From Escherichia coli (GTDB lineage Bacteria > Pseudomonadota > Gammaproteobacteria > Enterobacterales > Enterobacteriaceae), in assembly GCF_024223415.1 (NCBI RefSeq), contig NZ_CP100500.1: a DNA stretch of 64,000 nt, one strand, 5' to 3'. Both the position numbers and the translations under genes were made by a program. The notes below the pieces were generated by a model. That model was given only the letters and a program-made list of their open reading frames with translations. It did no database searches and had not been told where the DNA came from. Of this stretch, positions 3,203 through 41,134 are shown in pieces; within the stretch, counting starts at the first letter, position 1; each line of letters opens with the position of its first letter.

Positions 3203-4102
3203 TCACTCCATCATTTTCTCAATCGGCAGCACCAGGATTGAACTGGCACCCAGCGCTTTCAGTTTTTCCATCGTTTCCCAGAACAGGGTTTCGCTACTCA
3301 CCATGTGCATCGCTACGCGCTGTTGATCACCCGCCAGCGGTAGAATAGTTGGGCGTTCGGCACCTGGCAGCAGGGCGATGACTTCATCCAGGCGTTCGGT
3401 CGGTGCGTGCATCATGATGTATTTTGATTCGCGCGCCTGGATCACACCCTGAATACGGGTCAGCAGTTTGTCGATCAGCTGCTGTTTGGATTCTTCCATT
3501 TCGCCATCGCGTTGTATCAGGCAAGCTTTCGAGCGGTAGATAACTTCGACTTCGCGCAGGCCGTTTGCTTCCAGCGTGGCACCGGTGGAAACCAGATCGC
3601 AAATCGCATCCGCCAGTCCGGCGCGCGGGGCGACTTCAACAGAACCGTTCAGTAAGCAGGATTTAAAAGAGATGCCTTTCTGGTCGAGATAACGCTTGAG
3701 CAGGTGAGGATAAGAGGTGGCGATACGTTTACCGTTTAAGGAGAGCGGGCCGTCCCAGGCTTCATCAACCGGCGTTGCCAGCGAAAGACGGCAGCCGCCG
3801 AAATCCAGACGACGCAGGGTAAAGTAGCGTGGATCTTCACCCTGGGCGCGGCGGTTAAGCAGTTCTTCTTCCAGCACGTTTTCGCCGATAATCCCAAGGT
3901 CTACCACGCCGTCCATTACCAGACCGGGAATGTCGTCGTCACGCACGCGCAGAATATCAATCGGCATGTTTTCTGCCATCGCGATCAGGCGCTGGGTGTG
4001 AAGATTGATTTTAATGCCACAGCGCGCCAGTAATTCGCGTGAGTCATCACTTAAACGGCCGGATTTCTGCATAGCTATGCGTAAACGAGTGTTGTCTGTC
4101 AT
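3203..4102 (-). CDS. hisG: ATP phosphoribosyltransferase
   Basis: ORF 3203..4141; 299-aa product if started at [15 protein letters not shown] (4102). Confidence 0.93.
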
Positions 4103-13604: not shown

Positions 13605-14663
13605 GTGCGTGCCGATAAGTCATTAAGCCCGTTTGAAATCCGGGTATACCGCCATTACCGCATTGTGCATGGTACTCGGGTCGCGCTGGCATTCCTGCTC
13701 ACTTTTCTCATTATCCGCCTGTTTACTATCCCGGAAAGCACCTGGCCGCTGGTCACCATGGTGGTGATTATGGGGCCAATCTCGTTCTGGGGGAACGTTG
13801 TCCCTCGCGCATTCGAACGTATTGGCGGTACGGTGTTGGGGTCGATTTTAGGTCTTATCGCTCTGCAACTGGAGTTAATCTCGTTACCGCTGATGTTAGT
13901 CTGGTGCGCGGCGGCTATGTTTCTTTGCGGTTGGCTGGCGCTGGGCAAGAAACCGTATCAAGGTTTATTGATTGGGGTGACGCTGGCAATTGTTGTTGGT
14001 TCCCCGACAGGTGAAATTAATACGGCGTTATGGCGAAGCGGCGATGTGATCCTCGGCTCTTTACTGGCAATGTTGTTTACCGGTATCTGGCCACAACGGG
14101 CGTTCATCCACTGGCGCATTCAACTGGCGAAAAGTCTGACCGAGTATAATCGGGTCTATCAATCTGCATTCTCACCGAACTTACTCGAACGCCCACGTCT
14201 GGAAAGCCATCTACAAAAACTCCTGACCGATGCCGTGAAAATGCGTGGGCTGATTGCGCCCGCCAGCAAAGAAACCCGTATTCCAAAATCGATATATGAA
14301 GGTATCCAGACCATTAACCGCAATCTGGTTTGTATGCTGGAGTTGCAAATCAATGCGTACTGGGCCACGCGCCCCAGCCATTTCGTGTTATTGAGCGCGC
14401 AAAAACTTCGTGATACCCAGCACATGATGCAGCAAATACTGCTGAGCCTTGTTCATGCGCTGTACGAAGGTAATCCGCAGCCGGTTTTTGCCAATACGGA
14501 AAAATTGAACGATGCTGTGGAAGAGCTGCGTCAGTTGCTCAATAACCACCATGACCTGAAGGTAGTGGAAACACCAATCTATGGTTATGTGTGGCTGAAC
14601 ATGGAAACGGCGCATCAGCTTGAGTTGCTATCGAATCTGATTTGCCGGGCCTTGCGCAAATAA
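13605..14663 (+). CDS. yeeA: Inner membrane protein YeeA (FUSC-like)
   Basis: 352-aa ORF with several hydrophobic helices; synteny. Confidence 0.85.
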   Translation: MRADKSLSPFEIRVYRHYRIVHGTRVALAFLLTFLIIRLFTIPESTWPLVTMVVIMGPISFWGNVVPRAFERIGGTVLGSILGLIALQLELISLPLMLVWCAAAMFLCGWLALGKKPYQGLLIGVTLAIVVGSPTGEINTALWRSGDVILGSLLAMLFTGIWPQRAFIHWRIQLAKSLTEYNRVYQSAFSPNLLERPRLESHLQKLLTDAVKMRGLIAPASKETRIPKSIYEGIQTINRNLVCMLELQINAYWATRPSHFVLLSAQKLRDTQHMMQQILLSLVHALYEGNPQPVFANTEKLNDAVEELRQLLNNHHDLKVVETPIYGYVWLNMETAHQLELLSNLICRALRK

Positions 14664-16061: not shown

Positions 16062-16256
16062 TTACAGCAACTGGTGAGGGCTGGCATAAGTTGCCGGTGT
16101 TTCGGTAGAGTCACGGTCATCCACCACGCGGAGTGAATAACCTTTTTCAGCGGCCTTATTAATCAGTTCAGTGATATTAACACCATCAATGTCAACGGCA
16201 ATGTGCCCCATATCCAGCGCCTGTACGTTAACGCTGTCGGCTTCCAGTGTCATCAT
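16062..16256 (-). CDS. yeeW: Small prophage protein YeeW
   Basis: 64-aa ORF directly downstream of cbtA; start overlaps cbtA stop. Confidence 0.7.
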   Translation of the reverse strand: MMTLEADSVNVQALDMGHIAVDIDGVNITELINKAAEKGYSLRVVDDRDSTETPATYASPHQLL

Positions 16257-16626
16257 TTCGCCTCCGGATACTTACCCAGGGTAATGTTATTTACCGTTCT
16301 GTAATTGTCGCGGGTCATCAGGCCGGTCGCCCTGCGAGCCCGGAGGATATCGATGCTGTTTATTAACTGAGAGCGGGTACAGGCGCTGAATCCCGGCTGG
16401 TCGGTAGCACCAGCGCGTATTTTTCCACGAGAAAGTTCACCGCATCACACAGTGAAATGCCTGCCTCAATATGCTGCTCAATCACACGTTCATCGGCAAA
16501 AGGTGTGTCATTCAGTGTGAGGCCATAGTGCTGGTCCAGCAGTCGGGACAGCAGTATCTGCCAGATTTCAACAGGAGACGGGCGAGAACTGGTCGCCTGC
16601 CCGGGTAATACAGGTAATGTTTTCAT
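16253..16626 (-). pseudogene. cbtA: CbtA (YeeV) type IV toxin gene with a frameshift after codon ~80
   Basis: ORF 16363..16626 gives [36 protein letters not shown]...EKYALV then [14 protein letters not shown]; the +1 frame continues [50 protein letters not shown]. Confidence 0.8.
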
Positions 16627-16714
16627 ACTGAAGATTTTCCTGATATGCAGATATAAAAATGGAAAAGTGGCGTGGTGAAAACACCAGGCCGTAGCAGAAG
16701 GCTATTCTGGAGAG

Positions 16715-17083
16715 TTAATTTTTCATTTCGGGCGTCGGATAAACAGCCAGATAAACGTAACCACAACTGCTGAGGGTATCGGCTTTGCAGGTCAGCCCTT
16801 TTGCATACAGCGTGACGGTATGCTGATGGCGGGGATTCAGTTCACCGCTGGTGAGCATGAGTTCCAGTTGTTTCATCAGCAGCGGAAAGGCCTGGTCCAG
16901 GTGGTACGCATCTGCATCGCTGAACAGGCCTCTGATACCGGCGCGGTCGGCAAGGTAATGCAACCGGTTACCCTCCTGCACCAGACGTGCCCCGAAACAG
17001 GGCGTCACGGTGCAGGGCAGCCCCCACCAGGGGCGGTCGTGATTGTCGTCGGGAAGTGTTGTCCCGGGGAGTGTGTCTGACAC
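16715..17083 (-). CDS. cbeA: Antitoxin CbeA (YeeU)
   Basis: 122-aa ORF MSDTLPGTTLPDDNHDRPWWGLPCTVTPCFGARLVQEGNRLHYLADRAG... Confidence 0.9.
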   Translation of the reverse strand: MSDTLPGTTLPDDNHDRPWWGLPCTVTPCFGARLVQEGNRLHYLADRAGIRGLFSDADAYHLDQAFPLLMKQLELMLTSGELNPRHQHTVTLYAKGLTCKADTLSSCGYVYLAVYPTPEMKN

Positions 17084-17156
17084 GATAAAATCCTTACAGA
17101 AAATCGGCTAAGAATGGTCCGGTAGTGGCGATAATTCTGCTCATCAGAATTCCCAC

Positions 17157-17378
17157 TCAGTTCAGGGTGACGCTCATCAGCCGGACATACGGACCAAAAC
17201 TGTCCTTACGGCGTTCAGCAAACACGGCCAGCACACCGGGAATATCCTGCACTTCACGACCGGTATACGCTTCAGCACTGCCGTGCCAGCGGTATTTACC
17301 GGTACAGAACGGAAAAAGACGGGATGTCGGATGTTGTTGGTGAATACGCATGGCTTCACCACGGGTGATAATTTTCAT
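17157..17378 (-). CDS. yeeT: Prophage protein YeeT (DUF987)
   Basis: 73-aa ORF MKIITRGEAMRIHQQHPTSRLFPFCTGKYRWHGSAEAYTGREV... Confidence 0.88.
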   Translation of the reverse strand: MKIITRGEAMRIHQQHPTSRLFPFCTGKYRWHGSAEAYTGREVQDIPGVLAVFAERRKDSFGPYVRLMSVTLN

Positions 17379-17440: not shown

Positions 17441-17917
17441 TTAAAGCAGACCATGTTCGGCAAAGGAGAAAACCTGGTTGCCACCGACTATCAGATGGTC
17501 CGGCACCCGGATATCCACCAGGCCCAGTGCCTGTACCAGACGTTCCGTGATAAGGCGGTCTGCCTTACTGGGTGTGACTTCACCGGAGGGGTGATTGTGT
17601 GCCAGCACCACGGCAGCGGCATTGTGGTACAGGGCGCGTTTAATCACTTCCCGGGGATGGACTTCCGTGCGGTTGATGGTGCCGGTAAAGAGGGTTTCAC
17701 CGGCAATCAGTTGATTCTGGTTATTCAGATACAGCACCCGGAATTCTTCACGCTCCAGTCCCGCCATGTTCAGAATCAGCCATTCCCGTGCTGCACGGGT
17801 GGAGGTGAAGGCCACGCCGGGTTCATGAAGATGGCGGTCCAGGGTTTTCAGGGCCCGTTGAATGAGGCTGCGCTCGCCGGGCGTCATCTCTCCGGGCAGA
17901 AAGGAAAGTTGTTGCAT
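17441..17917 (-). CDS. yeeS: RadC-like JAB-domain protein YeeS
   Basis: 158-aa ORF (possible start at MTPGER, 17887); HNHPSGEVTPSKAD JAMM-type motif. Confidence 0.88.
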   Translation of the reverse strand: MQQLSFLPGEMTPGERSLIQRALKTLDRHLHEPGVAFTSTRAAREWLILNMAGLEREEFRVLYLNNQNQLIAGETLFTGTINRTEVHPREVIKRALYHNAAAVVLAHNHPSGEVTPSKADRLITERLVQALGLVDIRVPDHLIVGGNQVFSFAEHGLL

Positions 17918-17932
17918 TGTGCTTCTCTCAAT

Positions 17933-18412
17933 TCAGTCGATGATGCGCATAATGGCGCTGCATTCCGGATGCTGCAGGGCGTAATCCCGCAACCGGTAAT
18001 AATGGACCGTCATGGCATAATTCTCCGTACGACAGGCATGATGACTGTACGTCATCAGACAGGCGGCAATACCGGCGGCTTCCGGGCTCATTTCTGCGCG
18101 GTTACCGTTCATGGCATTGAACAGTACCCATGTTTCGTCATCATCGTCATCCGGTTCGGGTGCCATAAATGCCCCGCCGTTGTTCAGGGTGTACAGATTC
18201 CAGATACCACCGCAGTAGTCTTCGCACAGACGGTCCATCCAGCCGAAGACACGGGGCTCCAGGGTCACCCACTGTGGAATGAGGCCAAAATGCTGCGGCC
18301 AGAAGCTGATGCGCTGTTCATCAGGGACGAGGCTGGCAACCAACTGAGGCGGATTATTCTCTGGTGTTGTAGCTGAATAAATTGTGGGGGTATTCTGAGA
18401 AACGGTTTTCAT
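17933..18412 (-). CDS. Antirestriction protein (KlcA/ArdB/YfjX-like)
   Basis: 159-aa ORF with acidic stretch EPDDDDDETW; sits upstream of radC in the position yfjX occupies in CP4-57. Confidence 0.6.
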   Translation of the reverse strand: MKTVSQNTPTIYSATTPENNPPQLVASLVPDEQRISFWPQHFGLIPQWVTLEPRVFGWMDRLCEDYCGGIWNLYTLNNGGAFMAPEPDDDDDETWVLFNAMNGNRAEMSPEAAGIAACLMTYSHHACRTENYAMTVHYYRLRDYALQHPECSAIMRIID

Positions 18413-18493
18413 GAGATAACTCCTTAAATAACAAATAAATGTGTGTTTTTCAGGAACGAAAGCTGAATGATTCCCTCACTCAGGGAAACGGCA

Positions 18494-19315
18494 TCAGCGC
18501 AGGCTCTCCAGCATCGTTTCTGCCATCACCCACAATGCGCGATTGAGCTTAATGTCGGTATCAATGCTGTGAATGGCCCGGGTATGGATACGTTTTCCTT
18601 TTGCACTGCGACCGGAAATCCCGCCTTTCAGCATATTCTCCTGGATGGTCTGATATGCGCTCCACAGGTCCTTACCGTAATCCTCCCGGCGTCGCGGCGT
18701 CAGAATGTCGGCGGTGGTGACGGGCTGATGTTCGTCACCATAACGGTAAGTCAGTGCCGCCTGTGCCAGCGCCTGGCGTGCCGGTGGCGGCAGGACCAGC
18801 GACTGCATGGCATCACGCTTCTCCTCTATCCGGTCAAACACGCCCACCACCTCGTAAGCCCCTTCAATGACTCTGTCCACCACATTTCCCCGGTGCGGAA
18901 CACGCACTTCCCCCAGAGACTGACCACAGACGCAGCCGTTCTGGCAGACGAACCTGAAGTAACCCGGCAGCATCTGGTAGCTGGAGGTACCGTCATGAGA
19001 GTTGAGCAGAATAATTTCAGGGACATGTTCTCCGTTTATCTCTCCGGCCCGCCGCAGACGCAGCATGTGTTTGGTATATTCCCGGCGGCTCTGGTCGCGC
19101 ACACGGGTCTGGCAGGCGAAGAACGGCTGAAAGCCTTCCCGCTGCAGATTTTCCAGGACGGTAATGGTGGGAATGTACGCATACCGTTCACTGCGGGAGG
19201 TGTGCCGGTCTTCCCCAAAAATACTGGGTACATGGCGTATCAGTTCTTCATGTGTCAGCGGACGGTCACGGCGTATCTGGTTTGCAGCATAACCAAAACG
19301 ACTGGCTAATCGCAT
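18494..19315 (-). CDS. DUF932-family protein (YfjQ/YafZ-like)
   Basis: 273-aa ORF; position and size match the DUF932 gene of CP4-type elements. Confidence 0.6.
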   Translation of the reverse strand: MRLASRFGYAANQIRRDRPLTHEELIRHVPSIFGEDRHTSRSERYAYIPTITVLENLQREGFQPFFACQTRVRDQSRREYTKHMLRLRRAGEINGEHVPEIILLNSHDGTSSYQMLPGYFRFVCQNGCVCGQSLGEVRVPHRGNVVDRVIEGAYEVVGVFDRIEEKRDAMQSLVLPPPARQALAQAALTYRYGDEHQPVTTADILTPRRREDYGKDLWSAYQTIQENMLKGGISGRSAKGKRIHTRAIHSIDTDIKLNRALWVMAETMLESLR

Positions 19316-20780: not shown

Positions 20781-21851
20781 TTATTTAATCCGGGCCATCG
20801 CGTTTCTCAGTGCCAAATCTGCCTCTTCCGTTATATCCAGGCTTTTCTGCAATACCGCCTCTGACCGGGTCAGTGCCTGACGTGCTGCCAAGGGGTTCCG
20901 GATATGCTCCATCGTCAGCATCGTGTCTTCATAGCCCTGCTGACGCCAGATGTCGGTATGTGCCGATGTAAAACTGAGCAGACCGCCACTTTTGCCTTCT
21001 TCCCCTGTGTGTTTCAGCCTTTTCCGGGGACGGATTTCAAGGATTGTGGTGTCCGGAAAAGCCCGGCGATCCCATAAAGAACCGTCACTCAGATGCGTCA
21101 CAATCACCATATTGCATCCGGCATCGACCAGAGGCGTTACAGGGGTATTTCCCTGCATATTTCGCCATCCTCCCATCCCACCATCACCGAACATTGTCCC
21201 CTGAACCTCACGGGGATGGAACAACAGGGGCAGTGCGGCTGACGCAAGCAGAGCCTCTTTCTGCTGTCCGCGGGGCAGACTCTGGATATGCTGAAAAACG
21301 GCGTTTTTCGTGGTTCCGGCACCCAGTTCAGCACGAATGCAGTCAATAATATCCTGCATGCCCCCTTCTGTGGGGTACAGCGACACATACAGCGGTAGCC
21401 CGTCTGCCAGAGCATCAGTATCAAGATAATGATCCATCAGCGCTGTCAGAGGCTCATCTGACAACAGCGGCTGAGCCATCGGATTGTCGAAGCCGTTGAT
21501 TATCGATATATGGCGAAGAAGTATCGTAAGCAGTGCTCCTGCACGTCCGGGGATCTGGCAGAGGTTCATTGCCTGGAACAATTTTTTCAGCAATGAAAAG
21601 TAAACCGATCGGTTTACCGACAGCACCTGATTATTCCCCAGATGATCCCAGAGCGCCTCCAGGCGTACGGCAGCTTCTGACAGATCGGGAGAGGCCGCGA
21701 TAATGGCACCATTGAATGCGCCAATGCTGGCCCCTGAAACCATGCTGATCTGTGTACCACACTCTGCCAGTGCCTTAACCACTCCCGCCTGATAAGCGCC
21801 CACCGCCCCGCCACCGGACAGCACCAGCCCCGTTTTCATTTCTGTACTCAT
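20781..21851 (-). CDS. Patatin-like phospholipase
   Basis: 356 aa; oxyanion-hole motif LSGGGAVGAYQAG, GxSxG nucleophile elbow (GASIGA), DGG motif (FGDGGMGG); ATG overlaps stop of upstream gene. Confidence 0.8.
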   Translation of the reverse strand: MSTEMKTGLVLSGGGAVGAYQAGVVKALAECGTQISMVSGASIGAFNGAIIAASPDLSEAAVRLEALWDHLGNNQVLSVNRSVYFSLLKKLFQAMNLCQIPGRAGALLTILLRHISIINGFDNPMAQPLLSDEPLTALMDHYLDTDALADGLPLYVSLYPTEGGMQDIIDCIRAELGAGTTKNAVFQHIQSLPRGQQKEALLASAALPLLFHPREVQGTMFGDGGMGGWRNMQGNTPVTPLVDAGCNMVIVTHLSDGSLWDRRAFPDTTILEIRPRKRLKHTGEEGKSGGLLSFTSAHTDIWRQQGYEDTMLTMEHIRNPLAARQALTRSEAVLQKSLDITEEADLALRNAMARIK

Positions 21852-22753
21852 GCAGCCCCCTTCTGAAATATTTCATCGACCATACTTTCAGAGAGGCGTT
21901 CTGCAGAGCAGAGGCGAGGCATGCGAACCGGTAAGTGTTCTGCAGCCTGCGTGGTTGACCAGATCACCGGATGCTGCTCTTCACTGCACCAGTCTCCCAG
22001 CCAGTTAATCGCGTCATGCCACTCGTTATCTGCCTGCTCCCGGCCCTGACCACCAAGCCAGTCCAGAGTGTTCAGACGCACGGTTGCACTACCGCCACTC
22101 TCCTGTGCCATCTGCGTTAATGCTTTATGTCTGAGAATATCCAGTAGCTGGTTAACCTGGCCTGTTTCGCTCTGACGTATCACATCACCAAACGCGCCCC
22201 AGCGAAGCTCTTCAAGTGCCACATAACAACGTCCGGCAGGGGAAAATGACGCATATCGCCCGGCGCTCCACCATGAGAATATCTGCTCAAGATGTAACTG
22301 CGCCCGCTGAACCTGGTCAACACGGTGGAGTTTTTCTTCAAGATGATTCAGTTTATGGTGAACCTGATCGGCCAGGGTGAGTAACTGCTCCCGCGTATCT
22401 GCGGAATAATGCGCCAGCCTGGCTGTATCACTGACCAGTGAACTGACCCTGTCGTTTACCCGGGTAATCGCGTAGTTTGTGGTGGCAAGTGACGTTGTCA
22501 TCTCCGTCAGCCAGCGCAGGGACGCCTCAACGCCCTGTGCAAGCGACGCATTGATGGCATTCTGCCGTGCAGCGCCTTCGCCGGTCAGCCCCTCTTTTAA
22601 ACGCCGGAAGAACGTGCGCTCTCCGGCCGTGCGGATATGCTCCTGTGCAACATCGATTCCGTTTGCGAAATCAACCACAAATTTTTCAGGAAGACAGGTG
22701 AGTACCTGACATACCCGGTTATCAGCAATTTGTTGAATAAATGGTGAAGTCAC
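21848..22753 (-). CDS. Hypothetical 301-aa helical protein, middle gene of the GTPase-patatin operon
   Basis: No P-loop; likely GTG start overlapping the GTPase stop (GTGA) and stop overlapping patatin start (ATGA). Confidence 0.6.
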   Translation of the reverse strand: MTSPFIQQIADNRVCQVLTCLPEKFVVDFANGIDVAQEHIRTAGERTFFRRLKEGLTGEGAARQNAINASLAQGVEASLRWLTEMTTSLATTNYAITRVNDRVSSLVSDTARLAHYSADTREQLLTLADQVHHKLNHLEEKLHRVDQVQRAQLHLEQIFSWWSAGRYASFSPAGRCYVALEELRWGAFGDVIRQSETGQVNQLLDILRHKALTQMAQESGGSATVRLNTLDWLGGQGREQADNEWHDAINWLGDWCSEEQHPVIWSTTQAAEHLPVRMPRLCSAERLSESMVDEIFQKGAA

Positions 22754-25146
22754 AGCATTGTCTCCAGCTCTTCCCTCAGCGCCTTACTGTCAGTAATGAG
22801 CTCAGGAACCCTTTCATTTAATGCCTGAAGTCGCCCGGTAAGTCGTTCCTGCGCCTGCTGATCGCGTTTATGATCTTCAGAGCTCTGAATCAGCGTGTTA
22901 CGCAGTTGTTCAACTTTCTCCCTGAATGCGCAGAAAAAGGCATCGATTTCCTGGCGGACGGGCTGGTTAATATCCTGCTCAATGGATGCCTGCAGCTCCC
23001 CGAAATATGCCCGGGTCAGTGACATAACTTCCTCTCTGACCTTGTTGATATTGATCACGCTGCGACTCACATCCTCGTCATAGTTTTCCCAGCCCAGGTC
23101 ACTGGTGCCAAACCATCGACAAACGGTTCCCCATACGCCACTCTGCCGACGGCGACGGGTGACGGTCTCCGTTCTTTCCTCCATAAGCGCACTCAGATTT
23201 ATTTTTACCGCGAGCCGGGTCTGTAACTGGCTGACTGCCGGAAAACTGATTTTTACGGTAAAGCCCTCATCCTCCAGGCGGGCATTGATGCGACCGGCAA
23301 TGTTTTCTGTGGCGTACAGGGCCGTGCCACGAAAACCTGTTTCAATCCCGCTGACGATTTTCTCCAGCTCAGGCCGGAACTGTGCTTCAGCCTCACGGTG
23401 CAGGCTGGTCACGGTCGATTCGATTTGCGTCATCAGTTCAAGGGCTTCCCTGCGATCACTGAATTTTATTTCGGGGCTGTCCGGGGCAAAATCTCGTTTC
23501 CTGTAATCCTCCCGGCCCTGGTTGTTGATACCGGACCATTGAGAAATTTTCCCCCATAATCCGGACTGAGACCTTCGTTGTTCTGCGTCTTCTTCCTCCA
23601 GCATTTGCTGTTCTTTGCGTTTACCGCTTCTGAAATAGTCATTCAGCTCCTCTTCCAGTGAGGTGCAGACCCCCGTCAGTAATTCCCGGGTTTTAGTATC
23701 GATCTCCTCCATGGCCATTCTGACATCAGTGGTCATCTGCTCCTGACAGTCCGCGATTTCCCGGATATCCGCAAGCAGGCTGGTGATATGCGACTGCAGT
23801 GACTGAATGCTTTGCTGTAGCCCCTGATGGCGTAACAACAGGTATTCACTGATATTTTCTGCATTCTGCATCAGTTTTGCGGCGGCAGAGTCAACCGCCA
23901 GTGCCGCAGCTCTGGAATGTGAGCTCTGTATGACTTCCGTTATCAGTTGATCGATAAGTGAGCCTTCCCACAGGTCTGTCGCCCCTTCAGTTGCCAGTTC
24001 ACTGTCTTTACAGACGTATTCTTTTTTCATGCAACCGAAGGCACCTCTGATAAAATCATCGACCCAGGCTTCATCAACAGGAAGGGTTCCGTTTTTCCGT
24101 AACTCATGAAGCGCACGGTTAGCCAGGTATGCCTGGCGTGAGGATCCGGGATAAACGCGGGAGGCGGGCAGCACATCGCTGTTCAGCATTGCCGGAACTT
24201 TCTGGCGTACGGCATCTGCCCCATCGCCATTGCGGTCTTTCTCATCAAATTTATTGACCAGTACAAACAGGCGGCCGGCTGATACGTCAGCAATGGCATT
24301 AAGCTCTTTACGGACGTCTTCATCCGCTTTTGAGTTCATCTGGGTGTAATCCATCACAGCCAGAACCGCAGAGGCTTTCTGCAGTTGATCCCGCATCATC
24401 ACTTCCATCTGCGGTTGTCCGGCCTCATTAGGGCCGGGGGTATCCAGCAGTGTGAGTGTTCCCTGGCATGCATCCATCCCCACCAGATGGCTGAATTCCA
24501 CGTCGATCACCGGCAGTTTCTGCACTTCTGCGTATTCATCAAAAGGAAATTCAGTCCCCATTGCCGCAGCAAGACGAACCAGATCGTTTAACGATGCCAG
24601 TCCGGTAAAGATTTCCTCCTCCCCGTGGTATTCATTTTTGAGCCAGCCATCATCCGTCAGAATATCCAGCAGTTCGCGGGTATCCCCGGTTTGCTGCAGG
24701 GTCTGTGCGACCTGCTGTCCTGCCGGGGTGGCGAGTTTTTCCTGCAGTGTGATTAATAAATTGCGGACAGGCTGAATATGTTCCAGATGGAGAACCGGCT
24801 CAGTTTTTCCGGGAACGTGGCGGATGAGCGTCGGTACAGAGGTCATGGGGCGGTTACGGTTAGGCAGAATTTCCTGCCCCACAATGGCGTTGATGGTGGT
24901 TGATTTGCCTGCTTTCATCGTGCCGACAACAGCCAGCACCATCTCCCTGCGGGCGGTTTTGATTTGTTCGCCCTCCAGCTCCTCAATTCTTTTCAGTGCT
25001 TTCTGTTTATCAAAAAGCAGTCTGTTTTCGTTCTTACTGTCAGATAACACATCTGGCTCCTCAACCATTTGCCGGAGCAGATTAATGTTCAGTTGCAAAA
25101 GTCGGTCGGCTTCATCACAAAGCAGGGCGATGTTCTTTTCGTGCAT
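22750..25146 (-). CDS. Large dynamin-like GTPase (798 aa)
   Basis: P-loop GTMKAGKST, switch II DTPG, G4 NKFD, then ~450 aa of predicted helical region; SD AGGAAGG upstream of ATG 25146. Confidence 0.75.
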   Translation of the reverse strand: MHEKNIALLCDEADRLLQLNINLLRQMVEEPDVLSDSKNENRLLFDKQKALKRIEELEGEQIKTARREMVLAVVGTMKAGKSTTINAIVGQEILPNRNRPMTSVPTLIRHVPGKTEPVLHLEHIQPVRNLLITLQEKLATPAGQQVAQTLQQTGDTRELLDILTDDGWLKNEYHGEEEIFTGLASLNDLVRLAAAMGTEFPFDEYAEVQKLPVIDVEFSHLVGMDACQGTLTLLDTPGPNEAGQPQMEVMMRDQLQKASAVLAVMDYTQMNSKADEDVRKELNAIADVSAGRLFVLVNKFDEKDRNGDGADAVRQKVPAMLNSDVLPASRVYPGSSRQAYLANRALHELRKNGTLPVDEAWVDDFIRGAFGCMKKEYVCKDSELATEGATDLWEGSLIDQLITEVIQSSHSRAAALAVDSAAAKLMQNAENISEYLLLRHQGLQQSIQSLQSHITSLLADIREIADCQEQMTTDVRMAMEEIDTKTRELLTGVCTSLEEELNDYFRSGKRKEQQMLEEEDAEQRRSQSGLWGKISQWSGINNQGREDYRKRDFAPDSPEIKFSDRREALELMTQIESTVTSLHREAEAQFRPELEKIVSGIETGFRGTALYATENIAGRINARLEDEGFTVKISFPAVSQLQTRLAVKINLSALMEERTETVTRRRRQSGVWGTVCRWFGTSDLGWENYDEDVSRSVININKVREEVMSLTRAYFGELQASIEQDINQPVRQEIDAFFCAFREKVEQLRNTLIQSSEDHKRDQQAQERLTGRLQALNERVPELITDSKALREELETML

Positions 25147-25363: not shown

Positions 25364-26241
25364 TCAGAAGAAAATCCAGTTCCATACCGCGCGGGCAACA
25401 GAGACCACCGAGTCACGGACGGCGCGCAGAACCGTGCGTGCAACAGAGGCAATGCAGACGCTCTCCGCCGTGTCAAATATCCGGTCCACCGCACCGGTAA
25501 ACTGTTCACGGGCCTGAGACCGGACAGACTCCGTGCGCAGCTCGTCCTGCAGGCGGGTCATCAGGGGACTGGCGGCATGGTCGGGAAGTGCTGTCATGAG
25601 CGCACTGACCAGCGTATCCAGTTCCCAGCCGGTGCGGGCCGATACGGCAACAACCCGATGTACGGGCCGGAACAGACGGAATACCGCCTCCGTTTTTTCG
25701 CGAATGTTCTGTGCCTGTGCGGGAGAAGGCTGAATACCGGCCATATCCCATTCATGGCAGGGCTCCGTTTTATCGGCCTGCATCACCACAAACAGTACCC
25801 GCTGATGTCCCCGGTGCAGGATGTGTCGCCAGAAATACTCATCCACAGACAGGGCACGGTCATCGGCTTTAATCAGCCACAGTACCAGGTCCAGTTCGAG
25901 CAGAATGTCACGGTACAGGGCTTCATACTCTGCATCCCTGTCCCGGCTCTCGCCCACCCCACCCCGGGCAGGTCAGTGATAACCATGCTGTGACCATGGC
26001 CATTCAGACGGAAGCGCTGCACTTCCCGGGGGCCGGCGTGAACATCACTGACCGGGGTGACCTCCCCCTGAAACAGCGCATTACAGAGTGAGGATTTACC
26101 GGCCCCGCTTTTACCCATAATGCCAGGCACGGGTTCGTGACTGGTGAGTTTGCGCAGATGTTCCAGGATGTGACGGGAAAGTGAGTAAGGCAGGGAGGAG
26201 AGCGGTTTTTCAATTGCCTCAATGGCATCAGACGGATTCAT
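25364..26241 (-). pseudogene. yeeP: YeeP/YfjP/YkfA-family GTPase split by a 5-bp tandem duplication
   Basis: ORF 25873..26280 (P-loop GIMGKSGAGKSSLCNALF ... ITDLPGVGW) and ORF 25364..25957 (GESRDRDAEYEALY...) in different frames; junction reads cccggggtgggGTGGGcgagagc. Confidence 0.75.
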
Positions 26242-26324
26242 ACATGTATTCCCGGTGAAAAAAGACAAAACCCCGCGCACCGGAAAGGTGGCGGGGGATT
26301 CACGGAAATAATATCTGTCTGAAA

Positions 26325-31356: not shown

Positions 31357-31999
31357 CCAGCTTCACTTCGTCAATACGGTTCTCACTGCACGCTTACCAT
31401 TCTCTGCCAGGCATATGTCGATGTAATCCATAAACGATTTCAGCTTACCCCTTTTGTGGCCAGTCTTTCTGGCTGGCGGTTCAGGGGATGTTTTCTGGTT
31501 ATCGTGTACCACAAAGCAGGGATATTGCCCCGATAGTCACATTTCAGATTGATCGCGGTCTGAAGATGTGGCACTGAGGTAACGTGCTGGTGTCACTGGT
31601 ATTGCTGAAGTTATGGTTTTTCGGGGTCAGGTGAGCCTGTTGTGTGTATGCTTTTTGTTCAGGTCAGAGGGGGACTGTGTGGACAGCGGCTTTTGTCTCC
31701 GGGCATTCACGCCTGAACGATGAATGCGATTTTCAGCAATATTTGTCTTTGTGACACTCTCTGGTTGAGAAGCTAATGCGCGCCCCTGTTTCCACAGAGA
31801 ATGAGGCTTGCCATCAGCCGAAACATCAGTATTCCACGCCATACAGACGGCGCCTGACCATGTGCTGATGCAGGTAAAATGTTTCACTACAACTGTTCGG
31901 GTTGCTATGCAACGAAACAGCGATTCTCACGATCTTTAACTGCAACGTTTTTCCGCCTGAAAGTAAGCGTACAGCGAGGGCCGTATTGACGGGGATGTG

Positions 32000-33538
32000 T
32001 TATTCAGCTGGCAGTGCTATGCGCCACGGAAGCAGTTCGCTGACCCGGTTGACCGGCCAGTCTGCTATGACGCCAAGCACATGGCGAAGGTAGCTTTCTG
32101 GATCCACGTCATTCAGTTTGCACGTCCCTATCAGGCTGTACAGTAGCGCTCCCCGCTCACCACCATGGCCAGAGCCGAAGAACAGGAAGTTTTTACGACC
32201 CAGACTTACCGCCCGCAGGGCATTTTCAGCGATGTTGTTGTCGATTTCCACCCAGCCATCGTTCGCATAGTACGTCAGTGCCGGCCACTGGTTAAGTGCG
32301 TACGCGAACGCCTTCGCCAACTCTGAGTGTCGCGACAGGGTCTTCATCTTTTCACGCAACCAGCTTTCCAGGGATTTCAACAGCGGTTTCGTTTTTCGCT
32401 GACGTTCAGCAAGCCGCTGCTCTGCCGGCATTCCCCTTATATCCGCCTCTATGGCGTACAACTGACCGATCTGCTCCAGGGCTTCTTCCGTCAGTGCTGA
32501 CGGGATGCGGACGTGCACATCGTGGATCTTTCGGCGGGCATGAGCCCAGCAGGCAGCTTCCGTTATCCCACCATTGCGATACAGCTCGTTGAACCCGGCG
32601 TACGCATCCGCTTGCAGCACACCGCTGAAGCAAGCAAGATGAGTCTGCGGATGGATGCCTTTTCTGTCCGGGCTGTAAGCGAACCACACTGCAGGTGCCA
32701 ACGCTGACCCGGCATTGCGGTCATCACGAACATACGCCCACAACCGCCCGGTCTTCGTCTTCTTATTACCCGGCATCAGTACCTGGACCGGGGTATCATC
32801 GGCATGGAGTTTGCCGTCAGTCATGACATAGCCATGAAGCGCCTCTTCCAGCGGAGACAGCAGCCGGCAGCATGCATCCACCCAGCCCGACAGCAGTGAA
32901 CGGCTCAGCTCCACACCTTGCCGGCCGTATATTTCTGACTGGCGATACAGCGGGGTGTGCTCTGCATACTTCGAGGTCAGCACGCGGGCCAGCAGCCCCG
33001 GTCCGGCGATACCCCGCTCGATGGGCCGCGAAGGTGCAGGTGCCTGCACGATGGCATCGCACTGAGTACAGGCATGTTTTTCCCGTACCGTCCGGATAAC
33101 CCGGAAGGCGCTACGCATCAACTCCAGCTGTTCGGCGGTATCCTCGCCCAGATAGCTCAGTGAACCGCCGCAGTTCGGGCAGCACGGCGCCGCAGGCAAC
33201 AGTCGCTTTTCGTCACGGGGTAGTGATTCAGGGAACGGCTTACGGATGCGGGTCTGACGCAACGGACGCTGTACTGCCGGGTCATACACCCTACCAGTCA
33301 GCGTATCGCTCTCTTTCTGAAGCTGGTTCAGATCGGCTTCCATTTGTGCGATACGGCGGGAGACTTTTTCGGAACGACTGCCGAAGTTCATCCGGCGGAG
33401 TTTATCCAGCTGCGCCTGCAGATGGTCTATTTCGCGCTCCCGGTTGCTCAGCTTTTCCTGCAGGGCGTGGATCAGCGCTTCCTGTTCGGCCAGGCGCTGT
33501 TTCAGCAGGAAGATGTCGTCAGAAGAGATGTCGTTCAT
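32000..33538 (-). CDS. IS66-family transposase TnpC (second copy, diverged from the first)
   Basis: 512-aa [33 protein letters not shown]... Confidence 0.88.
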
Positions 33539-33587
33539 AAGCCCGTATTTTACCGGGCTTATTCTGTGACAACCAGGATAAAGAGAT

Positions 33588-33935
33588 TTACAGCATGGTC
33601 AGGGAGGTCAGCAGCCGCTTAGGCTGTCGCCAGTCGATACCTTCCAGCAGCATCGCCAGCTGCGCCTGTGTAAGGAACACTTTGCCATCACGGGCTGACG
33701 GCCAGGCGAAGCGCCCACGCTCCAGCCGTTTGGTCAGGAGGCACAGTCCGTCACCGGTGGACCACAGCAGTTTAACCTGACTGCCGCTGCGGCCCCGGAA
33801 AATGAAAACATGGCCGGACATGGGATCGTCTTTCAGCGCCGTCTGTACTTTCGCAGCCAGGCCGTTGAAGCCATTTCTCATATCGGTGATACCGGCAACC
33901 AGCCAAATTTTGGTCCCGGAAGGTAAAGGGATCAT
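33588..33935 (-). CDS. IS66-family TnpB (second copy)
   Basis: 115-aa ORF nearly identical to 29424..29771. Confidence 0.85.
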
Positions 33936-34333
33936 CGCTTCAGTTCCTGTATCAGCAGAGTCAGGAGCTTTTCGCTGACATTGCCATTGAAGCGGAGCGT
34001 CCCGTGCCGGAACGTTACCTCACAGCTGATACTGAGGGTTTCCGGGTCCTCTGCGAGCGATTCTGGCTGTTCGGCAGCTGCATCGAGAGTCACAGGAAGT
34101 AGCTGGGGGCTCTCTGAAGAAGGTAATAGCAGCTTTCCCTCGCGCCATTGTTGTCGCCATTTGAACAACAGATTGGCGTTAATGCCATTTTCAAGAGCAA
34201 GTTTTGAGATGGATATCCCGGGTTCACAGGAGGCAGCAACGAGCTGCTGTTTAAATTCGGGAGGATAATTAGGGCAGCCTTTTCGCCTGCCGGGAGTCAC
34301 ATTTTTCTGCATATCTGACACTTTGGTTCCCAC
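33932..34333 (-). CDS. IS66-family TnpA (second copy, diverged)
   Basis: 133-aa ORF overlapping orfB by 4 nt. Confidence 0.75.
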   Translation of the reverse strand: MGTKVSDMQKNVTPGRRKGCPNYPPEFKQQLVAASCEPGISISKLALENGINANLLFKWRQQWREGKLLLPSSESPQLLPVTLDAAAEQPESLAEDPETLSISCEVTFRHGTLRFNGNVSEKLLTLLIQELKR

Positions 34334-34764
34334 TACTTATTTGGTGGACACCACTTTGTCTAATTCGTCAGATTCTGACCAGACGGTTCAGGCTGTACGC
34401 TTACGCCTGAAAGCTGACTGCCTCCTGCTGAGGTGGGAGGCTATGATTCAGTGCGTTTATAGTCTCCGGGGTATGCATGTACCGGAGCATACCATTTCTG
34501 GTGGATAACAAGCCGGCACATTCAGACTGCAGTGAAGATGGAGGCACCTGGTTGTGAAGAACGTTTCTGCCCGTGGCTGCTTCGCATCATCAATGGTATT
34601 CATACCCGCTCAGAAATGACCGGGTGCTGAAGCCCTCCGTTATCGCGCAGTATAATGACGTATATGATCTGTGGACGAGTGAGCGGCGTGCCTGATGTAC
34701 GCCGCTATTACTGTATTTTACCACAGGGCTGGTTTTCTGCTGCCAGCCCTGTGGTTCTCAGACA

Positions 34765-35382
34765 TCAACTGTGAGCGGCATCAACCGATGTACGGTATGC
34801 CATAAGCACGTACTGATCCATCAGATTTGTCAGTGGTTCACTCTGACCCTGACGTGCAATGATCCATTGCTCCAGATCTTTTTCTGATTTGTGTTTCAGG
34901 TTTTTCGTCCAGTCGTCAAGGCTGTTTCCGGTCATTAAGTCAAGCCAGCAGAGCCAGACCAGTTTGAGACGTAACTCCGTGCCGCCAAACTGACGGAAGA
35001 GGCTGATCAGTTTGTTTGCCAGAGAATGTTGCTTCAGGCGCTCACATTCAGACAGCAGGATCCCTTCCAGCATCGGATGATGAACCAGCAGGTGTTCGCT
35101 GGTGCATAAATTCACCACCAGATCATCATCCAGGGACGGGGAGCTCCGTTTGTCCGGACCATAAATCAGCCGGTGCAGACTCTGGGGAACGATGGCAATC
35201 TCCGGTTTTTCGCCATTGAATGACACCCACCCGGGCGTCAGATTATGGAAATAGTAGATATTCGGATGACACACGCCCCATGATACGGCGTGCCGGGTGA
35301 AGCCGGTCAGCCATTTCTGGTAGTTTTCATGGAGCAGCTCGTAACGGGTCTGATACTGTTGTTTCATTTTCATATTCCTCAC
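34765..35382 (-). CDS. Hypothetical 205-aa island protein
   Basis: ORF downstream of alpA on the same strand; two hairpins follow its stop (34690-34754). Confidence 0.45.
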   Translation of the reverse strand: MRNMKMKQQYQTRYELLHENYQKWLTGFTRHAVSWGVCHPNIYYFHNLTPGWVSFNGEKPEIAIVPQSLHRLIYGPDKRSSPSLDDDLVVNLCTSEHLLVHHPMLEGILLSECERLKQHSLANKLISLFRQFGGTELRLKLVWLCWLDLMTGNSLDDWTKNLKHKSEKDLEQWIIARQGQSEPLTNLMDQYVLMAYRTSVDAAHS

Positions 35383-35460
35383 GGGGGATAACAGGCAGCA
35401 GAGCGCCGCCGGCAGGCCGGAGATTGCGTCTGCTGTGGGCGAAGGGTTAGTGGTTAAAAA

Positions 35461-35667
35461 TTACGGACGGGACTGTGCAATACGCGCCTGCAGCCAGGCT
35501 TCCACTTCACTTTTCAGCCAGCGGGAGCTGCGCCCCATTTTGATGGGCGCAGGAAAGCCCCCATCTTTGATGAGTTTGTCAAACCACTTATCGGTTAGGC
35601 CGGTCAGTTGAGTGATAAACGCCATGTCGACCATCTGGTCATCCATCAGCGAAACTGGGGTAGCCAT
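35461..35667 (-). CDS. alpA: AlpA-family prophage transcriptional regulator
   Basis: ORF 35461..35739; about 68-aa product from MATPVSLMDDQMVDMAFITQLTGLTDKWFDKLIKDGGFPAPIKMGRSSRWLKSEVEAWL. Confidence 0.75.
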   Translation of the reverse strand: MATPVSLMDDQMVDMAFITQLTGLTDKWFDKLIKDGGFPAPIKMGRSSRWLKSEVEAWLQARIAQSRP

Positions 35668-36792
35668 GAGAATGTTCCTCCGGATGTTGTTAAACCAGCC
35701 GGTGTGGTCATGAAAACAGCGCGCCACCTTCACCGGCATAACAACCGGGGAGAAACGTAAAAAATAATCGGGAATGTGGCTGTCCGGAGATAAACGGGGG
35801 GATTGCGATGGCAGAGCCGTAGCGGAATCCCGGAGGGGGGTGTTGCAAAAGATGCTTCCGCACGCACGCGCGATAAAGAGGGGATAGTTTTCGTGAGGAC
35901 AGGGAGAGAAGCAGGCGTTCTGATAATTGCAGAGTTGTTTTCGGAGGTGGTTACAGTGAGTCAGCCCGTTCCTGGCGAGCAGGAGACTGATATCACCGAT
36001 GGGATAAGGTTGTCTGATTGGTATTATAAATATAAGAAGTCATCAGAGAGTAACGTAAAGGATTTGCCAGAATAACCTAAGAGAGTAAATCTCTCCGGTA
36101 ACAGAGCGCTATGAAGCATTCTGTATCAGAGTGCAGATACATGAACGCTGATGCGTAAAATCAGCAGTGACACGCCAGCTCCCCCTATGCCCATTCCTGT
36201 ATAAGACATGAACTGAGTGTATTAATGCTTCTGCCCTGAGACTGAGCCGGTGAGTGAGGGGCTGAGAAATCCCTCTTGACACAGCTCTAACCAGAAATAC
36301 TTCCCCGGTTGTTGCGGTGCGTCCGGATCCCCGATAACGGAACACTAAGGCTGTATTGCGGGACACCGGGTAAGTAGCAGCCCGTAAGGCGTTCTGTCAA
36401 CGCCAGAAAAAATGATTTCCCACACGCGTTATAGACTCACTCCTGTGGACCTGGAAGCCCGTAACTCTGCGGTTGCCCACTGACTGACGGAACTGACCGC
36501 AAATTTTACGAGTGCGTGCTGGGCTTCAGTCTGGTCACCTGAGCGTTCGGTAACGGAGGCGCGGGCGGTAATAGGCTGATTTTCAGGTATTACCGGCTTA
36601 CAGCGTGTGGTTGATATTGAGGGGCTGTGAGTTTCGCGTATTTGTCAGAAACCCAGACGAGTTTTCCTGTATGGGACGAAATAAGGCAGCGGCAATACCT
36701 GGAAAAATTTAATATGGTATGAAGGAGAACCTGTCGGTTACGCTTAATATACCCGGTACACTGTCAGCTCAGGGGATACATGAACCGTTATC

Positions 36793-36996
36793 TCACCAGC
36801 TACACAGTATATACACACTGACGCTGACAGTAGTCAGCAGGACCACAATAATCAGTGCCAGCAGTATGGTAACGATACGGTCTGTATTCCGGTAATAGCC
36901 GAAGGGGTCGACAGAACCACAATACGGGCAACACACTGTATTATGAGTAATCGCGTTTCCACAGTCCCTGCACTTCTTTTTGCGTATCACCATCAC
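36793..36996 (-). CDS. Small zinc-ribbon membrane protein (CxxC...CxxC then one TM helix)
   Basis: 67-aa ORF KKKCRDCGNAITHNTVCCPYCGSVDPF ... IVTILLALIIVVLLTTVSVSVYILCSW. Confidence 0.4.
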   Translation of the reverse strand: MMVIRKKKCRDCGNAITHNTVCCPYCGSVDPFGYYRNTDRIVTILLALIIVVLLTTVSVSVYILCSW

Positions 36997-37192
36997 TCCC
37001 TCCTCACAGCCTTACCCGTAACCGGTTTTTTACATTAAAAAAACAACGCTGAAAATTCAACCGTCAGTCCGGAGACGACCGTTCGGGTTATCACAGAGTG
37101 CCTGAGACAGTGTCCTGCCGGAGGTCACTTCAGGGACTCTGCGCATTTTTTACGACGTGGCTATTCCGTATGAACCATACGGAGATTTAACC

Positions 37193-37762
37193 ATGACCTA
37201 CAAATACAACCCCTTCTGGCAGCAACGTATTCGTGAGACGGTGCGGCACGCACTGAATGTTCATCCCCGCCTGACGGCATTGCGGGTTGACCTGCGTTTC
37301 CCGGATGTACCGGCAGCAACGGACGCAGCTGTGATATCCCGCTTCATCAATGCCCTGAAAGCCCGAATCGACGCTTACCAGAAACGTAAGCATCGGGAAG
37401 GTAAACGCGTGCATCCCACCACCCTGCATTACGTCTGGGCCCGGGAGTTTGGGGAGTGCAAAGGTAAAAAACACTATCACCTGATGCTGCTGGTTAACCG
37501 GGATACCTGGTGTCGTGCCGGTGATTACCGTGCTCCGGGATCACTGGCCGGGATGATTAAACAGGCGTGGTGCAGTGCCCTGGGAGTGGATGTCGGGTGC
37601 CATGCCACGCTGGTGCATTTTCCGGCCTGGCCGGCGGTGTGGCTGGAACGCGATGATGACACTGGCTTTCAGCAGGTGCTGGAACGTGCTGACTATCTGG
37701 CGAAGGAACATACCAAAGCTCACTGCACCGGTGAGCGCAATTTTGGCTGTAGCCGGAGTTGA
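37193..37762 (+). CDS. Hypothetical island protein, possibly YagK/YfjJ (inovirus Gp2-like) family
   Basis: ORF 37157..37762; SD ggaga precedes ATG 37193 (MTYKYNPFWQQRIRETV...). Confidence 0.45.
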   Translation: MTYKYNPFWQQRIRETVRHALNVHPRLTALRVDLRFPDVPAATDAAVISRFINALKARIDAYQKRKHREGKRVHPTTLHYVWAREFGECKGKKHYHLMLLVNRDTWCRAGDYRAPGSLAGMIKQAWCSALGVDVGCHATLVHFPAWPAVWLERDDDTGFQQVLERADYLAKEHTKAHCTGERNFGCSRS

Positions 37763-38015
37763 GCACGACTGGCGCGCCAATATCCGGCAAACCAAAAGTA
37801 TGGGTTGTTGTCTGGCGGCAACGATGTATCCACTCGCCCACTGACTGTTTTTTACGTCAGTGTTCCATTGTGTGACAACCACAGTGCTGTAACAGCAACC
37901 AGCCTGCTTTACCCAAACTCCAGTCCAGATTTTAACTGAACCGCCATTCACACCCTGACCACGCTGCCCGTACCGGGACGGCTGTTGCCTGCGTGTCGTC
38001 TGGCGGCTGAGGAAT

Positions 38016-38423
38016 ATGACTATGTACGCAAAATCCTTTATCGCTCTTGATGGCAACGGACGTCTGACGGGCGCCCGTACTGCACAGGCCGCACCTTATG
38101 CTAACTACACCTGCCACTTGTGTGGCAGTGCACTCAGATACCATCCGCAATACGACACTGAACTTCCCTGGTTTGAACACACTGACGACAGGCTGACAGA
38201 GCACGGTCAACAGTGCCCTTATGTCAGGCCGGAGCGCAGAGAAATACAGTTGATTAAACGTCTGCAGCAATTCGTACCGGATGCCTTACCCGTGGTGCGT
38301 AAAGCCAGCTGGCACTGCAGACAATGTCACCACGATTATTATGGGGAGCGGTACTGCACACACTGCCAGACCGGAGGATTCAGTATTCCCCGGACAACTC
38401 AGGAGGAAATATGCGAATTCTGA
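38016..38423 (+). CDS. Cys-rich zinc-ribbon protein, paralog A (unknown function)
   Basis: 135 aa with CHLCG...PWFEH...CRQCHHDYYGERYCTHCQTGG. Confidence 0.5.
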   Translation: MTMYAKSFIALDGNGRLTGARTAQAAPYANYTCHLCGSALRYHPQYDTELPWFEHTDDRLTEHGQQCPYVRPERREIQLIKRLQQFVPDALPVVRKASWHCRQCHHDYYGERYCTHCQTGGFSIPRTTQEEICEF

Positions 38424-38821
38424 ACTGTTATATGGCGAATGACAGCAAAGGCCATTTTGTTACGGCGAAAGAAGCAGCGAAGCACAACCGCCAGGACGTT
38501 TTGTGCTGTGTGTCCTGTGGATGCCCGTTAACACTTCAGCGGGGCAATGACGGACAACCACCGTGGTTTGAACATGACCAGATGACTGTCGCTGAGAAAA
38601 TCCTGCTGCGATGCACCTGGCTTGACCCGGCAGAGAAAGAGGCCCGTCGTTTGCATCTGCAGGGTATGACGGTTCCGGATTATACGGTGAAGGTGAGAAA
38701 GTGGTTTTGTGTGATGTGTGACGAAGATTATGAAGGAGAAAAGTGCTGCCCGCGTTGTGGTACCGGGGTATACAGCAGGGAGGGGGGGCTGCAGGAAGGC
38801 AACTGGAAGGATAGGAACTGA
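38411..38821 (+). CDS. Cys-rich zinc-ribbon protein, paralog B (unknown function)
   Basis: ORF 38324..38821; perfect SD aggagg before ATG 38411 (MRILNCYMAND...); CCVSCGC...PWFEH...CVMCDEDYEGEKCCPRCGTG mirrors paralog A. Confidence 0.5.
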   Translation: MRILNCYMANDSKGHFVTAKEAAKHNRQDVLCCVSCGCPLTLQRGNDGQPPWFEHDQMTVAEKILLRCTWLDPAEKEARRLHLQGMTVPDYTVKVRKWFCVMCDEDYEGEKCCPRCGTGVYSREGGLQEGNWKDRN

Positions 38822-39006
38822 GCGGTTCAGTCGCGGAAATCAGTTGCAGAGCTGTAATGATATCTCCGGGAGTGCTGCGTTGGTAGGGGCATCCCGGGAT
38901 AGAGAAATTTTAGCACTTTGCCCTGAATGATTGTAGACGTTCCGAGTACTCGTACCGGTCTGAGTTATTACAGTTAGATATTCACTTTTTCTCCCGCATA
39001 CTTCAC

Positions 39007-40790: not shown

Positions 40791-40793
40791 CAC

Positions 40794-41095
40794 TTTGTTA
40801 CCGGTAGCTGGATCATCACTACCGTGCTGCAAATGGTGGTGAACAGCATCAATTGTGGAATGAATGTTGCCGAAGCGACCAATGCGCCTCGTTTCCACTA
40901 TCAGTGGTTGCCGGACGAGCTGCGTGTTGAAAAGGGTTTAGTCCGGATACGCTCAAGCTGCTGGATGCAAAAGGTCAGAAAGTGGCGCTGAATGAGGCGA
41001 TGGGCAGCACGCAAAGCATTATGGTTGGGTCGGATGGTGAGTTGTACGGCGCATCCGACTCGCGCTTGGTGGATGATTTAACGGCGGGGTATTAA
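40794..41095 (+). pseudogene. ggt: 3' remnant of a gamma-glutamyltranspeptidase gene with an internal frameshift
   Basis: Translates ...VTGSWIITTVLQMVVNSINCGMNVAEATNAPRFHYQWLPDELRVEKG then, after a frameshift, SPDTLKLLDAKGQKVALNEAMGSTQSIMVGSDGELYGASDSRLVDDLTAGY*. Confidence 0.7.
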
Positions 41096-41134
41096 TTGAC
41101 ATCCCCCGGCGCAATGTGCCGGGGGATAATGGTT

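Follow-up and report, generated by a model that had tools for sequence, protein, structure and literature searches.

Why does an Escherichia coli chromosome carry an intact antitoxin gene of a type IV toxin-antitoxin module next to a toxin gene with a broken reading frame? The founding pair of this module type is encoded in the cryptic prophage CP4-44 of E. coli K-12 and consists of cbtA (yeeV, b2005, 124 aa) and cbeA (yeeU, b2004). The same locus, with yeeW, tmaR, yeeA and sbmC, is present in the E. coli DNA analyzed here, a stretch of 64,000 nucleotides of contig NZ_CP100500.1 which is referred to as the window. A complete CbtA/CbeA module has two intact partners, but in the window the toxin gene is frameshifted and only the antitoxin gene is whole. 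An earlier note on this DNA had taken this combination as a sign of decay of the module or of selection against the FtsZ/MreB-targeting toxin.

For the characterization of the lesion, window positions 16240-16640 were aligned with cbtA of K-12 MG1655 (b2005). One gap and one substitution were found over 402 columns; apart from the missing G and this SNP the cbtA DNA is identical to that of K-12. The gap (CTGGTGC-TACCGACC in the window versus CTGGTGCGTACCGACC in K-12) lies in codon 74, where CGT (Arg74) became C-T, and the G is absent between positions 16407 and 16406 of the minus strand (junction 16406..16407). The substitution is an exchange of GCC for ACC, which corresponds to A12T. Translation of the minus strand from 16626 to 16253 yields 73 native residues followed by 14 junk residues and a stop at 87 aa. 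A tblastn search with K-12 CbtA assigned residues 1-73 to positions 16626-16408 in one frame and residues 75-124 to positions 16405-16256 in the adjacent frame with 100% identity. The restored frame, TDQPGFSAC...YPEAK, extends to the natural stop codon at 16255-16253, which is still preserved. Every sequence detail of the earlier note was thus correct: the toxin frame reads normally and then runs into 14 aberrant residues and a stop (ORF 16363..16626), a shift by one base recovers the last 50 residues up to the natural stop, the alignment with b2005 which the note had proposed shows the single-base deletion at ctggtgc-taccgacc, and cbeA is uninterrupted over 122 aa. Full-length CbtA is not translatable from this allele in the standard way. 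The deletion is flanked by a 6-bp inverted repeat (GCTGGT...ACCAGC, 16396-16414), the loop of which is shortened from 8 to 7 bases without any improvement of the palindrome. A promoter and terminator scan gave nothing above chance except a terminator-like hairpin of the antisense strand across the deletion site.

All genes of the module are encoded on the minus strand. The cbtA pseudogene spans 16253..16626, its limits being the ATG (16626) and the former TGA (16255-16253), and identical DNA carries the frameshift flag of PGAP. The remaining ORF of 87 aa (16363..16626) comprises CbtA residues 1-73 including A12T, 14 out-of-frame residues and a TAA at 16365-16363, and the out-of-frame remnant (16256..16405) codes for residues 75-124 with zero substitutions relative to K-12. 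The antitoxin gene cbeA (16715..17083) is located 88 bp upstream of cbtA on the same strand, in the usual arrangement of the module; it encodes 122 aa, of which 121 are identical to K-12 (the exception is D108G), and matches the Pfam family CbeA_antitoxin (PF06154) with E = 4e-53. The gene yeeW (16062..16256), encoding a DUF5983 N-terminal domain of 64 aa, is intact as well, and its start overlaps the original cbtA stop in an ATGA at 16253-16256. The premature stop of cbtA (16363-16365) is now located 107 bases before the start of yeeW, and any translational coupling from cbtA to yeeW would therefore probably be lost. ORFs for DUF5983 and ANF00264 proteins were described to occur consistently 3' of cbtA, and a programmed frameshift was suggested there (PMC13294457, published in 2026). 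Neither a second cbtA nor a second cbeA was detected in the window by tblastn. The pairs ykfI/yafW of CP4-6 and ypjF/yfjZ of CP4-57, which share the Pfam families and the gene order with cbtA/cbeA and whose antitoxins are interchangeable with CbeA (PMC5371832), reside at other loci than cbtA/cbeA and are absent from the window according to tblastn.

The first explanation to be considered was an error of sequencing or assembly, which the earlier note itself had named as a possible refutation. An 80-mer centered on the junction was searched in 5,426 complete E. coli genomes and had an exact match in about 1,486 of them, counted in a 99% identity band that can be reached by exact match alone and with the full probe covered in all but two of the matching records. 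The equivalent 81-mer for the intact K-12 allele was exact in about 1,776 records of the same collection. This collection is heavily skewed towards O157:H7 and laboratory strains, and the resulting share of about 27% for the frameshifted allele is a figure of the sample and not a population frequency. Moreover, at least 40 complete E. coli genomes from independent assemblies match the window with 100% identity over 901 bp (16200-17100), a query which covers cbeA and cbtA and extends 57 bases into the start of yeeW. The deletion site is situated outside any homopolymer, so that a sequencing error shared by all these assemblies is not credible. An artefact of the window is accordingly hardly conceivable.

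The allele is also known to the databases. Five carriers were inspected (CP53, Combat11I9, O157:H7 PV15-279, CUVET19-1993 and strain 103), and in all five of them RefSeq annotation by PGAP tags cbtA as frameshifted and cbeA is intact. The deletion and the resulting 87-aa product of these E. coli strains are the same as in the window. All five carry the allele at the same locus, which in O157:H7, CUVET19-1993 and strain 103 is marked by the neighboring genes tmaR, yeeA and sbmC. Two variants of the 87-aa product exist, each on at least 1,000 contigs and both named in GenBank and UniRef: T12, the form of the window which is shared by CP53 and Combat11I9, and A12, the form in O157:H7. Literature searches on a cbtA frameshift or a yeeV pseudogene retrieved no paper on this allele. 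The frameshift of cbtA is a very common, already annotated allele in E. coli and an ordinary known pseudogene; in O157:H7, in ETEC and in many commensals RefSeq gives the same allele the label of a frameshifted pseudogene.

That the short allele is the original one was the second refutation named in the earlier note, and the direction of change was deduced from homologs. The best 120 CbtA homologs are mostly about 124-125 aa long, some being annotated as partial or fused. When 26 full-length relatives (Escherichia, Klebsiella, Citrobacter, Enterobacter, Serratia and Raoultella) were aligned, 45 columns proved invariant, and 20 of them, beginning with R74, fall into the part removed by the frameshift. 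The Pfam model CbtA_toxin (PF06755) is covered by the intact protein over positions 1-112 and by the 87-aa ORF over only 1-73 of these 112 positions. The ORF is still recognized as a family member (E = 3e-37, 127 bits at a cutoff of 25), but the unbroken frame of about 124 aa with the conserved region R74-G118 is missing because the ORF stops at 87 aa. A 28-mer across the junction had zero matches in 100,044 species-representative genomes, and the junction was seen nowhere outside E. coli. That the short form is ancestral and functional and the 124-aa form derived has, in view of the length and the invariant R74 of the homologs from the other five genera, practically no probability left. The 124-aa form is ancestral and the short form derived, as judged from these comparisons. 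A relative order of the changes can also be given. In O157:H7 and strain 103 the deletion is the sole difference between the frameshifted haplotype and K-12 cbtA, and A12T is added in the window, CP53 and Combat11I9; the intact gene therefore lost the G before A12T arose. A derived and disabling lesion that is reproducible over assemblies and flagged as a pseudogene by PGAP is what characterizes a unitary frameshift pseudogene.

A broken frame could be bridged during expression, either by programmed -1 recoding or by transcriptional slippage, which would restore a nearly full-length CbtA. To join the two frames again, a -1 shift could occur at any point of codons 61-88, an A5 run (GAA AAA) is present at codon 68, and the downstream frame is perfectly preserved. 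The A5 run, however, occurs likewise in the intact allele, so that no new signal has evolved, and the low divergence of the block as a whole accounts for the preserved downstream frame (see below). An evident stimulatory structure is absent, too. With no slippery heptamer of the type X XXY YYZ in codons 61-88 and no match in Rfam, a programmed ribosomal frameshift site was rejected, and recoding in general is considered very improbable. Separate expression of the C-terminal half was rejected as well, since no start codon leaves at least 30 aa in that frame.

What remains of the toxin deserves a closer look, because the loss of the toxin as postulated by the earlier note is only partly borne out: the full-length toxin is gone, but toxicity need not have gone with it, as the 87-aa product retains R15 and F65. 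The exchange R15C abolishes binding to MreB and F65S abolishes binding to FtsZ, and either interaction alone still kills cells (Heller et al., PMC5624674). Both target-binding residues are situated within the 73 retained residues. An AF2 model of CbtA, of moderate reliability with a pLDDT of 75.6 and with four of the five models below 61, predicts three helices before the break and two behind it (91-101 and 106-116), the break itself coinciding with the beginning of a linker of low confidence (residues 70-90); solved structures of the CbtA family were searched for and none was found. Tan and coworkers are said to have observed in 2011 that C-terminal deletions of YeeV cause cell elongation. 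Taken together with the intact cbeA in every inspected carrier, these points would fit an attenuated toxin, a predicted three-helix fragment which might still reach FtsZ via F65, might cause filamentation without the lemon shape and would still require cbeA. We regard this as rather unlikely. The fragment has lost 20 invariant positions and carries 14 junk residues which put its stability in doubt, the nonsynonymous exchange A12T arose after the frameshift, and a young lesion predicts an intact cbeA just as well. More far-reaching still, and an even longer shot, is the proposal that the 87-aa allele is a separated-function variant, which would keep the FtsZ surface, would have lost the block of elongation and might be selectively maintained as a milder, CbeA-controlled inhibitor of division in roughly one of four E. 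coli, O157:H7 among them. A genome-wide association study reported a "specific sequence" of cbtA, the allele being given in a figure only, as the strongest gene-content association with resistance to microcin J25 (MccJ25) in E. coli (PMC10926693).

The retained antitoxin had been read by the earlier note as an informative sign, and this reading does not hold. According to a passage in PMC5624674 that cites Masuda 2012, CbeA does not bind CbtA, stabilizes polymers of FtsZ and MreB and protects against other FtsZ inhibitors. Furthermore, CbeA, YafW and YfjZ each neutralize all three paralogous toxins, including YkfI and YpjF, and the operon is not autoregulated (PMC5371832). Since CbeA acts on FtsZ and MreB and cross-neutralizes the paralogs, an intact antitoxin gene is to be expected regardless of the state of the toxin gene.

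The window is 99.9% identical to Combat11I9 over positions 11000-31963 and 34401-41999, and the annotation of the island was transferred from this genome. The array yeeS-yeeT-cbeA-cbtA-yeeW adjoins tmaR, yeeA and sbmC, which form the chromosomal side, as is typical for an island of the CP4-44 type. Starting from there, a EutP-like fragment, a transposase fragment and a DUF957 fragment precede yeeW, followed by the frameshifted cbtA, cbeA, and the intact minus-strand genes yeeT (17157-17378), yeeS (17441-17917), an antirestriction gene (17933-18412) and a DUF932 gene (18494-19315). Two hypothetical genes, genes encoding a patatin-like phospholipase, an RdcB and a dynamin-family protein, a GTPase gene, IS66 elements and further genes complete the order. 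In K-12 cbtA is intact and flu and yeeR are located upstream, whereas the window, with its frame broken at codon 74, has the antirestriction, DUF932, patatin-like, RdcB and dynamin-family genes at this side. The genes for the patatin-like phospholipase, the RdcB-family protein and the dynamin-family protein of 798 aa are adjacent at about 20781-25146. A segment of about 2.4 kb (31964-34400) which is missing from the otherwise 99.9% identical Combat11I9 corresponds to a further IS66-family element in inverted orientation, which shares about 83% identity with the copy next to it. The yeeP-like gene of the GTPase family (25364..26280, minus strand) is a second frameshifted gene, consisting of overlapping ORFs of 135 and 197 aa and annotated as "frameshifted" in Combat11I9. 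The island is of the CP4-44 type and in advanced erosion. A decay of the module fits this setting, given the second split gene and the gene fragments.

Of the two explanations offered in the earlier note, decay of the module is thus in accordance with the degraded island, and selection against the toxin has to be judged from the diversity around the deletion. The window was compared with five other frameshifted genomes and with three genomes carrying the intact allele (K-12, JJ2434 and AVS0542). Over the 1,023 columns of the block cbeA-cbtA-yeeW, each comparison with K-12 or one of the five frameshifted genomes showed 0-6 substitutions. On either side of the block, four of these frameshifted genomes deviate from the window by 0.9-1.8% in yeeS, the antirestriction gene, the DUF932 gene and yeeA; the fifth, Combat11I9, is nearly identical throughout. 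Divergence of block and flanks differed with Fisher p-values of 0.0005-0.02, the comparisons not being independent of each other. Between lineages, positions 16062-17083 (0.1-0.6%) are 3-8 times less diverged than positions 13605-14663 and 17441-19315 (0.9-1.8%). This holds for frameshifted and intact alleles, and either homogenization by recombination or a constraint on the sequence may be the cause. In JJ2434 the first 63 bases of cbeA (3364-3426) contain 12 differences and the remainder almost none, which gives the gene a mosaic-like appearance; this patch probably originates from recombination with a paralogous module.

An adaptive loss, in which the deletion would have spread because absence of the FtsZ/MreB toxin is beneficial, could draw on the high number of carriers (about 1,486 of 5,426), on their distribution over distant lineages and on the low divergence of the surrounding block, as a recent spread by recombination would produce it. 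The low diversity is, however, shared by the intact alleles of K-12, JJ2434 and AVS0542 and is therefore a property of the block, not a sign that the frameshifted haplotype has swept. The 81-mer of the intact allele is at least as common, and the genome collection is clonally biased. Selection could be a cause of a frequency of about 27% across distant lineages, as counted in this biased collection, but on balance an adaptive loss appears unlikely.

The condition of the dead 3' part of cbtA argues in the same direction. It has acquired zero substitutions in the six compared carriers. A 194-base probe comprising the junction and the whole dead 3' part was exact in 17 of 17 cases, namely the first 17 of 60 evenly spaced rows of the ranking, and from this sampling about 1,400 of the 1,486 carriers (about 95%) are estimated to have an unchanged dead 3' part. 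Beyond the deletion, no further decay was seen in the cbtA-cbeA-yeeW module. As the allele equals the intact K-12 allele minus one base and the dead 3' part is unchanged, the lesion is young on its haplotype. There has been no time for the module to decay, and hence the intact cbeA does not testify to selection for keeping the antitoxin, and selection against the toxin cannot be deduced from how frequent the deletion is. Of the interpretation given in the earlier note, decay thus stands as far as the setting of the island is concerned, and selection does not follow from an allele that is K-12 minus the deletion.

We consider it likely that the locus carries a genuine, inherited loss-of-function allele of cbtA caused by deletion of one G, an ordinary pseudogenization in a degrading island for which selection is not demonstrated. 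In the sequence of events which we propose, a cbtA allele like that of K-12 would have lost one G of its invariant Arg74 codon, most likely in a single event within E. coli. The product would consist of 73 native and 14 junk residues and would lack the conserved C-terminal 51 residues with their two predicted helices. The allele would since have reached its present distribution at the CP4-44-type locus of about a quarter of the sequenced complete genomes, in phylogroups as distant as O157:H7 and ETEC, and the copy of the window would have gained A12T later. With a third of the conserved domain gone, the dual toxin function directed against FtsZ and MreB has presumably been lost, and the full dual toxin would no longer be made. 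The intact state of cbeA would be accounted for by the youth of the lesion on its haplotype together with the action of CbeA on the cytoskeleton, which would make it independent of CbtA. We classify the locus as a unitary pseudogene of a type IV toxin, accompanied by an orphaned, self-sufficient antitoxin.

As a discovery the observation is of little value, since a pseudogene in a cryptic island was correctly spotted which had already been annotated. Its meaning lies in the use of the family in other work. Surveys of toxin-antitoxin systems based on Pfam score the 87-aa ORF as a CbtA toxin in more than 1,000 genomes, including those of O157:H7, although the full toxin cannot be made there. At the same time the allele represents a natural truncation for testing which half of CbtA inhibits FtsZ and which inhibits MreB.
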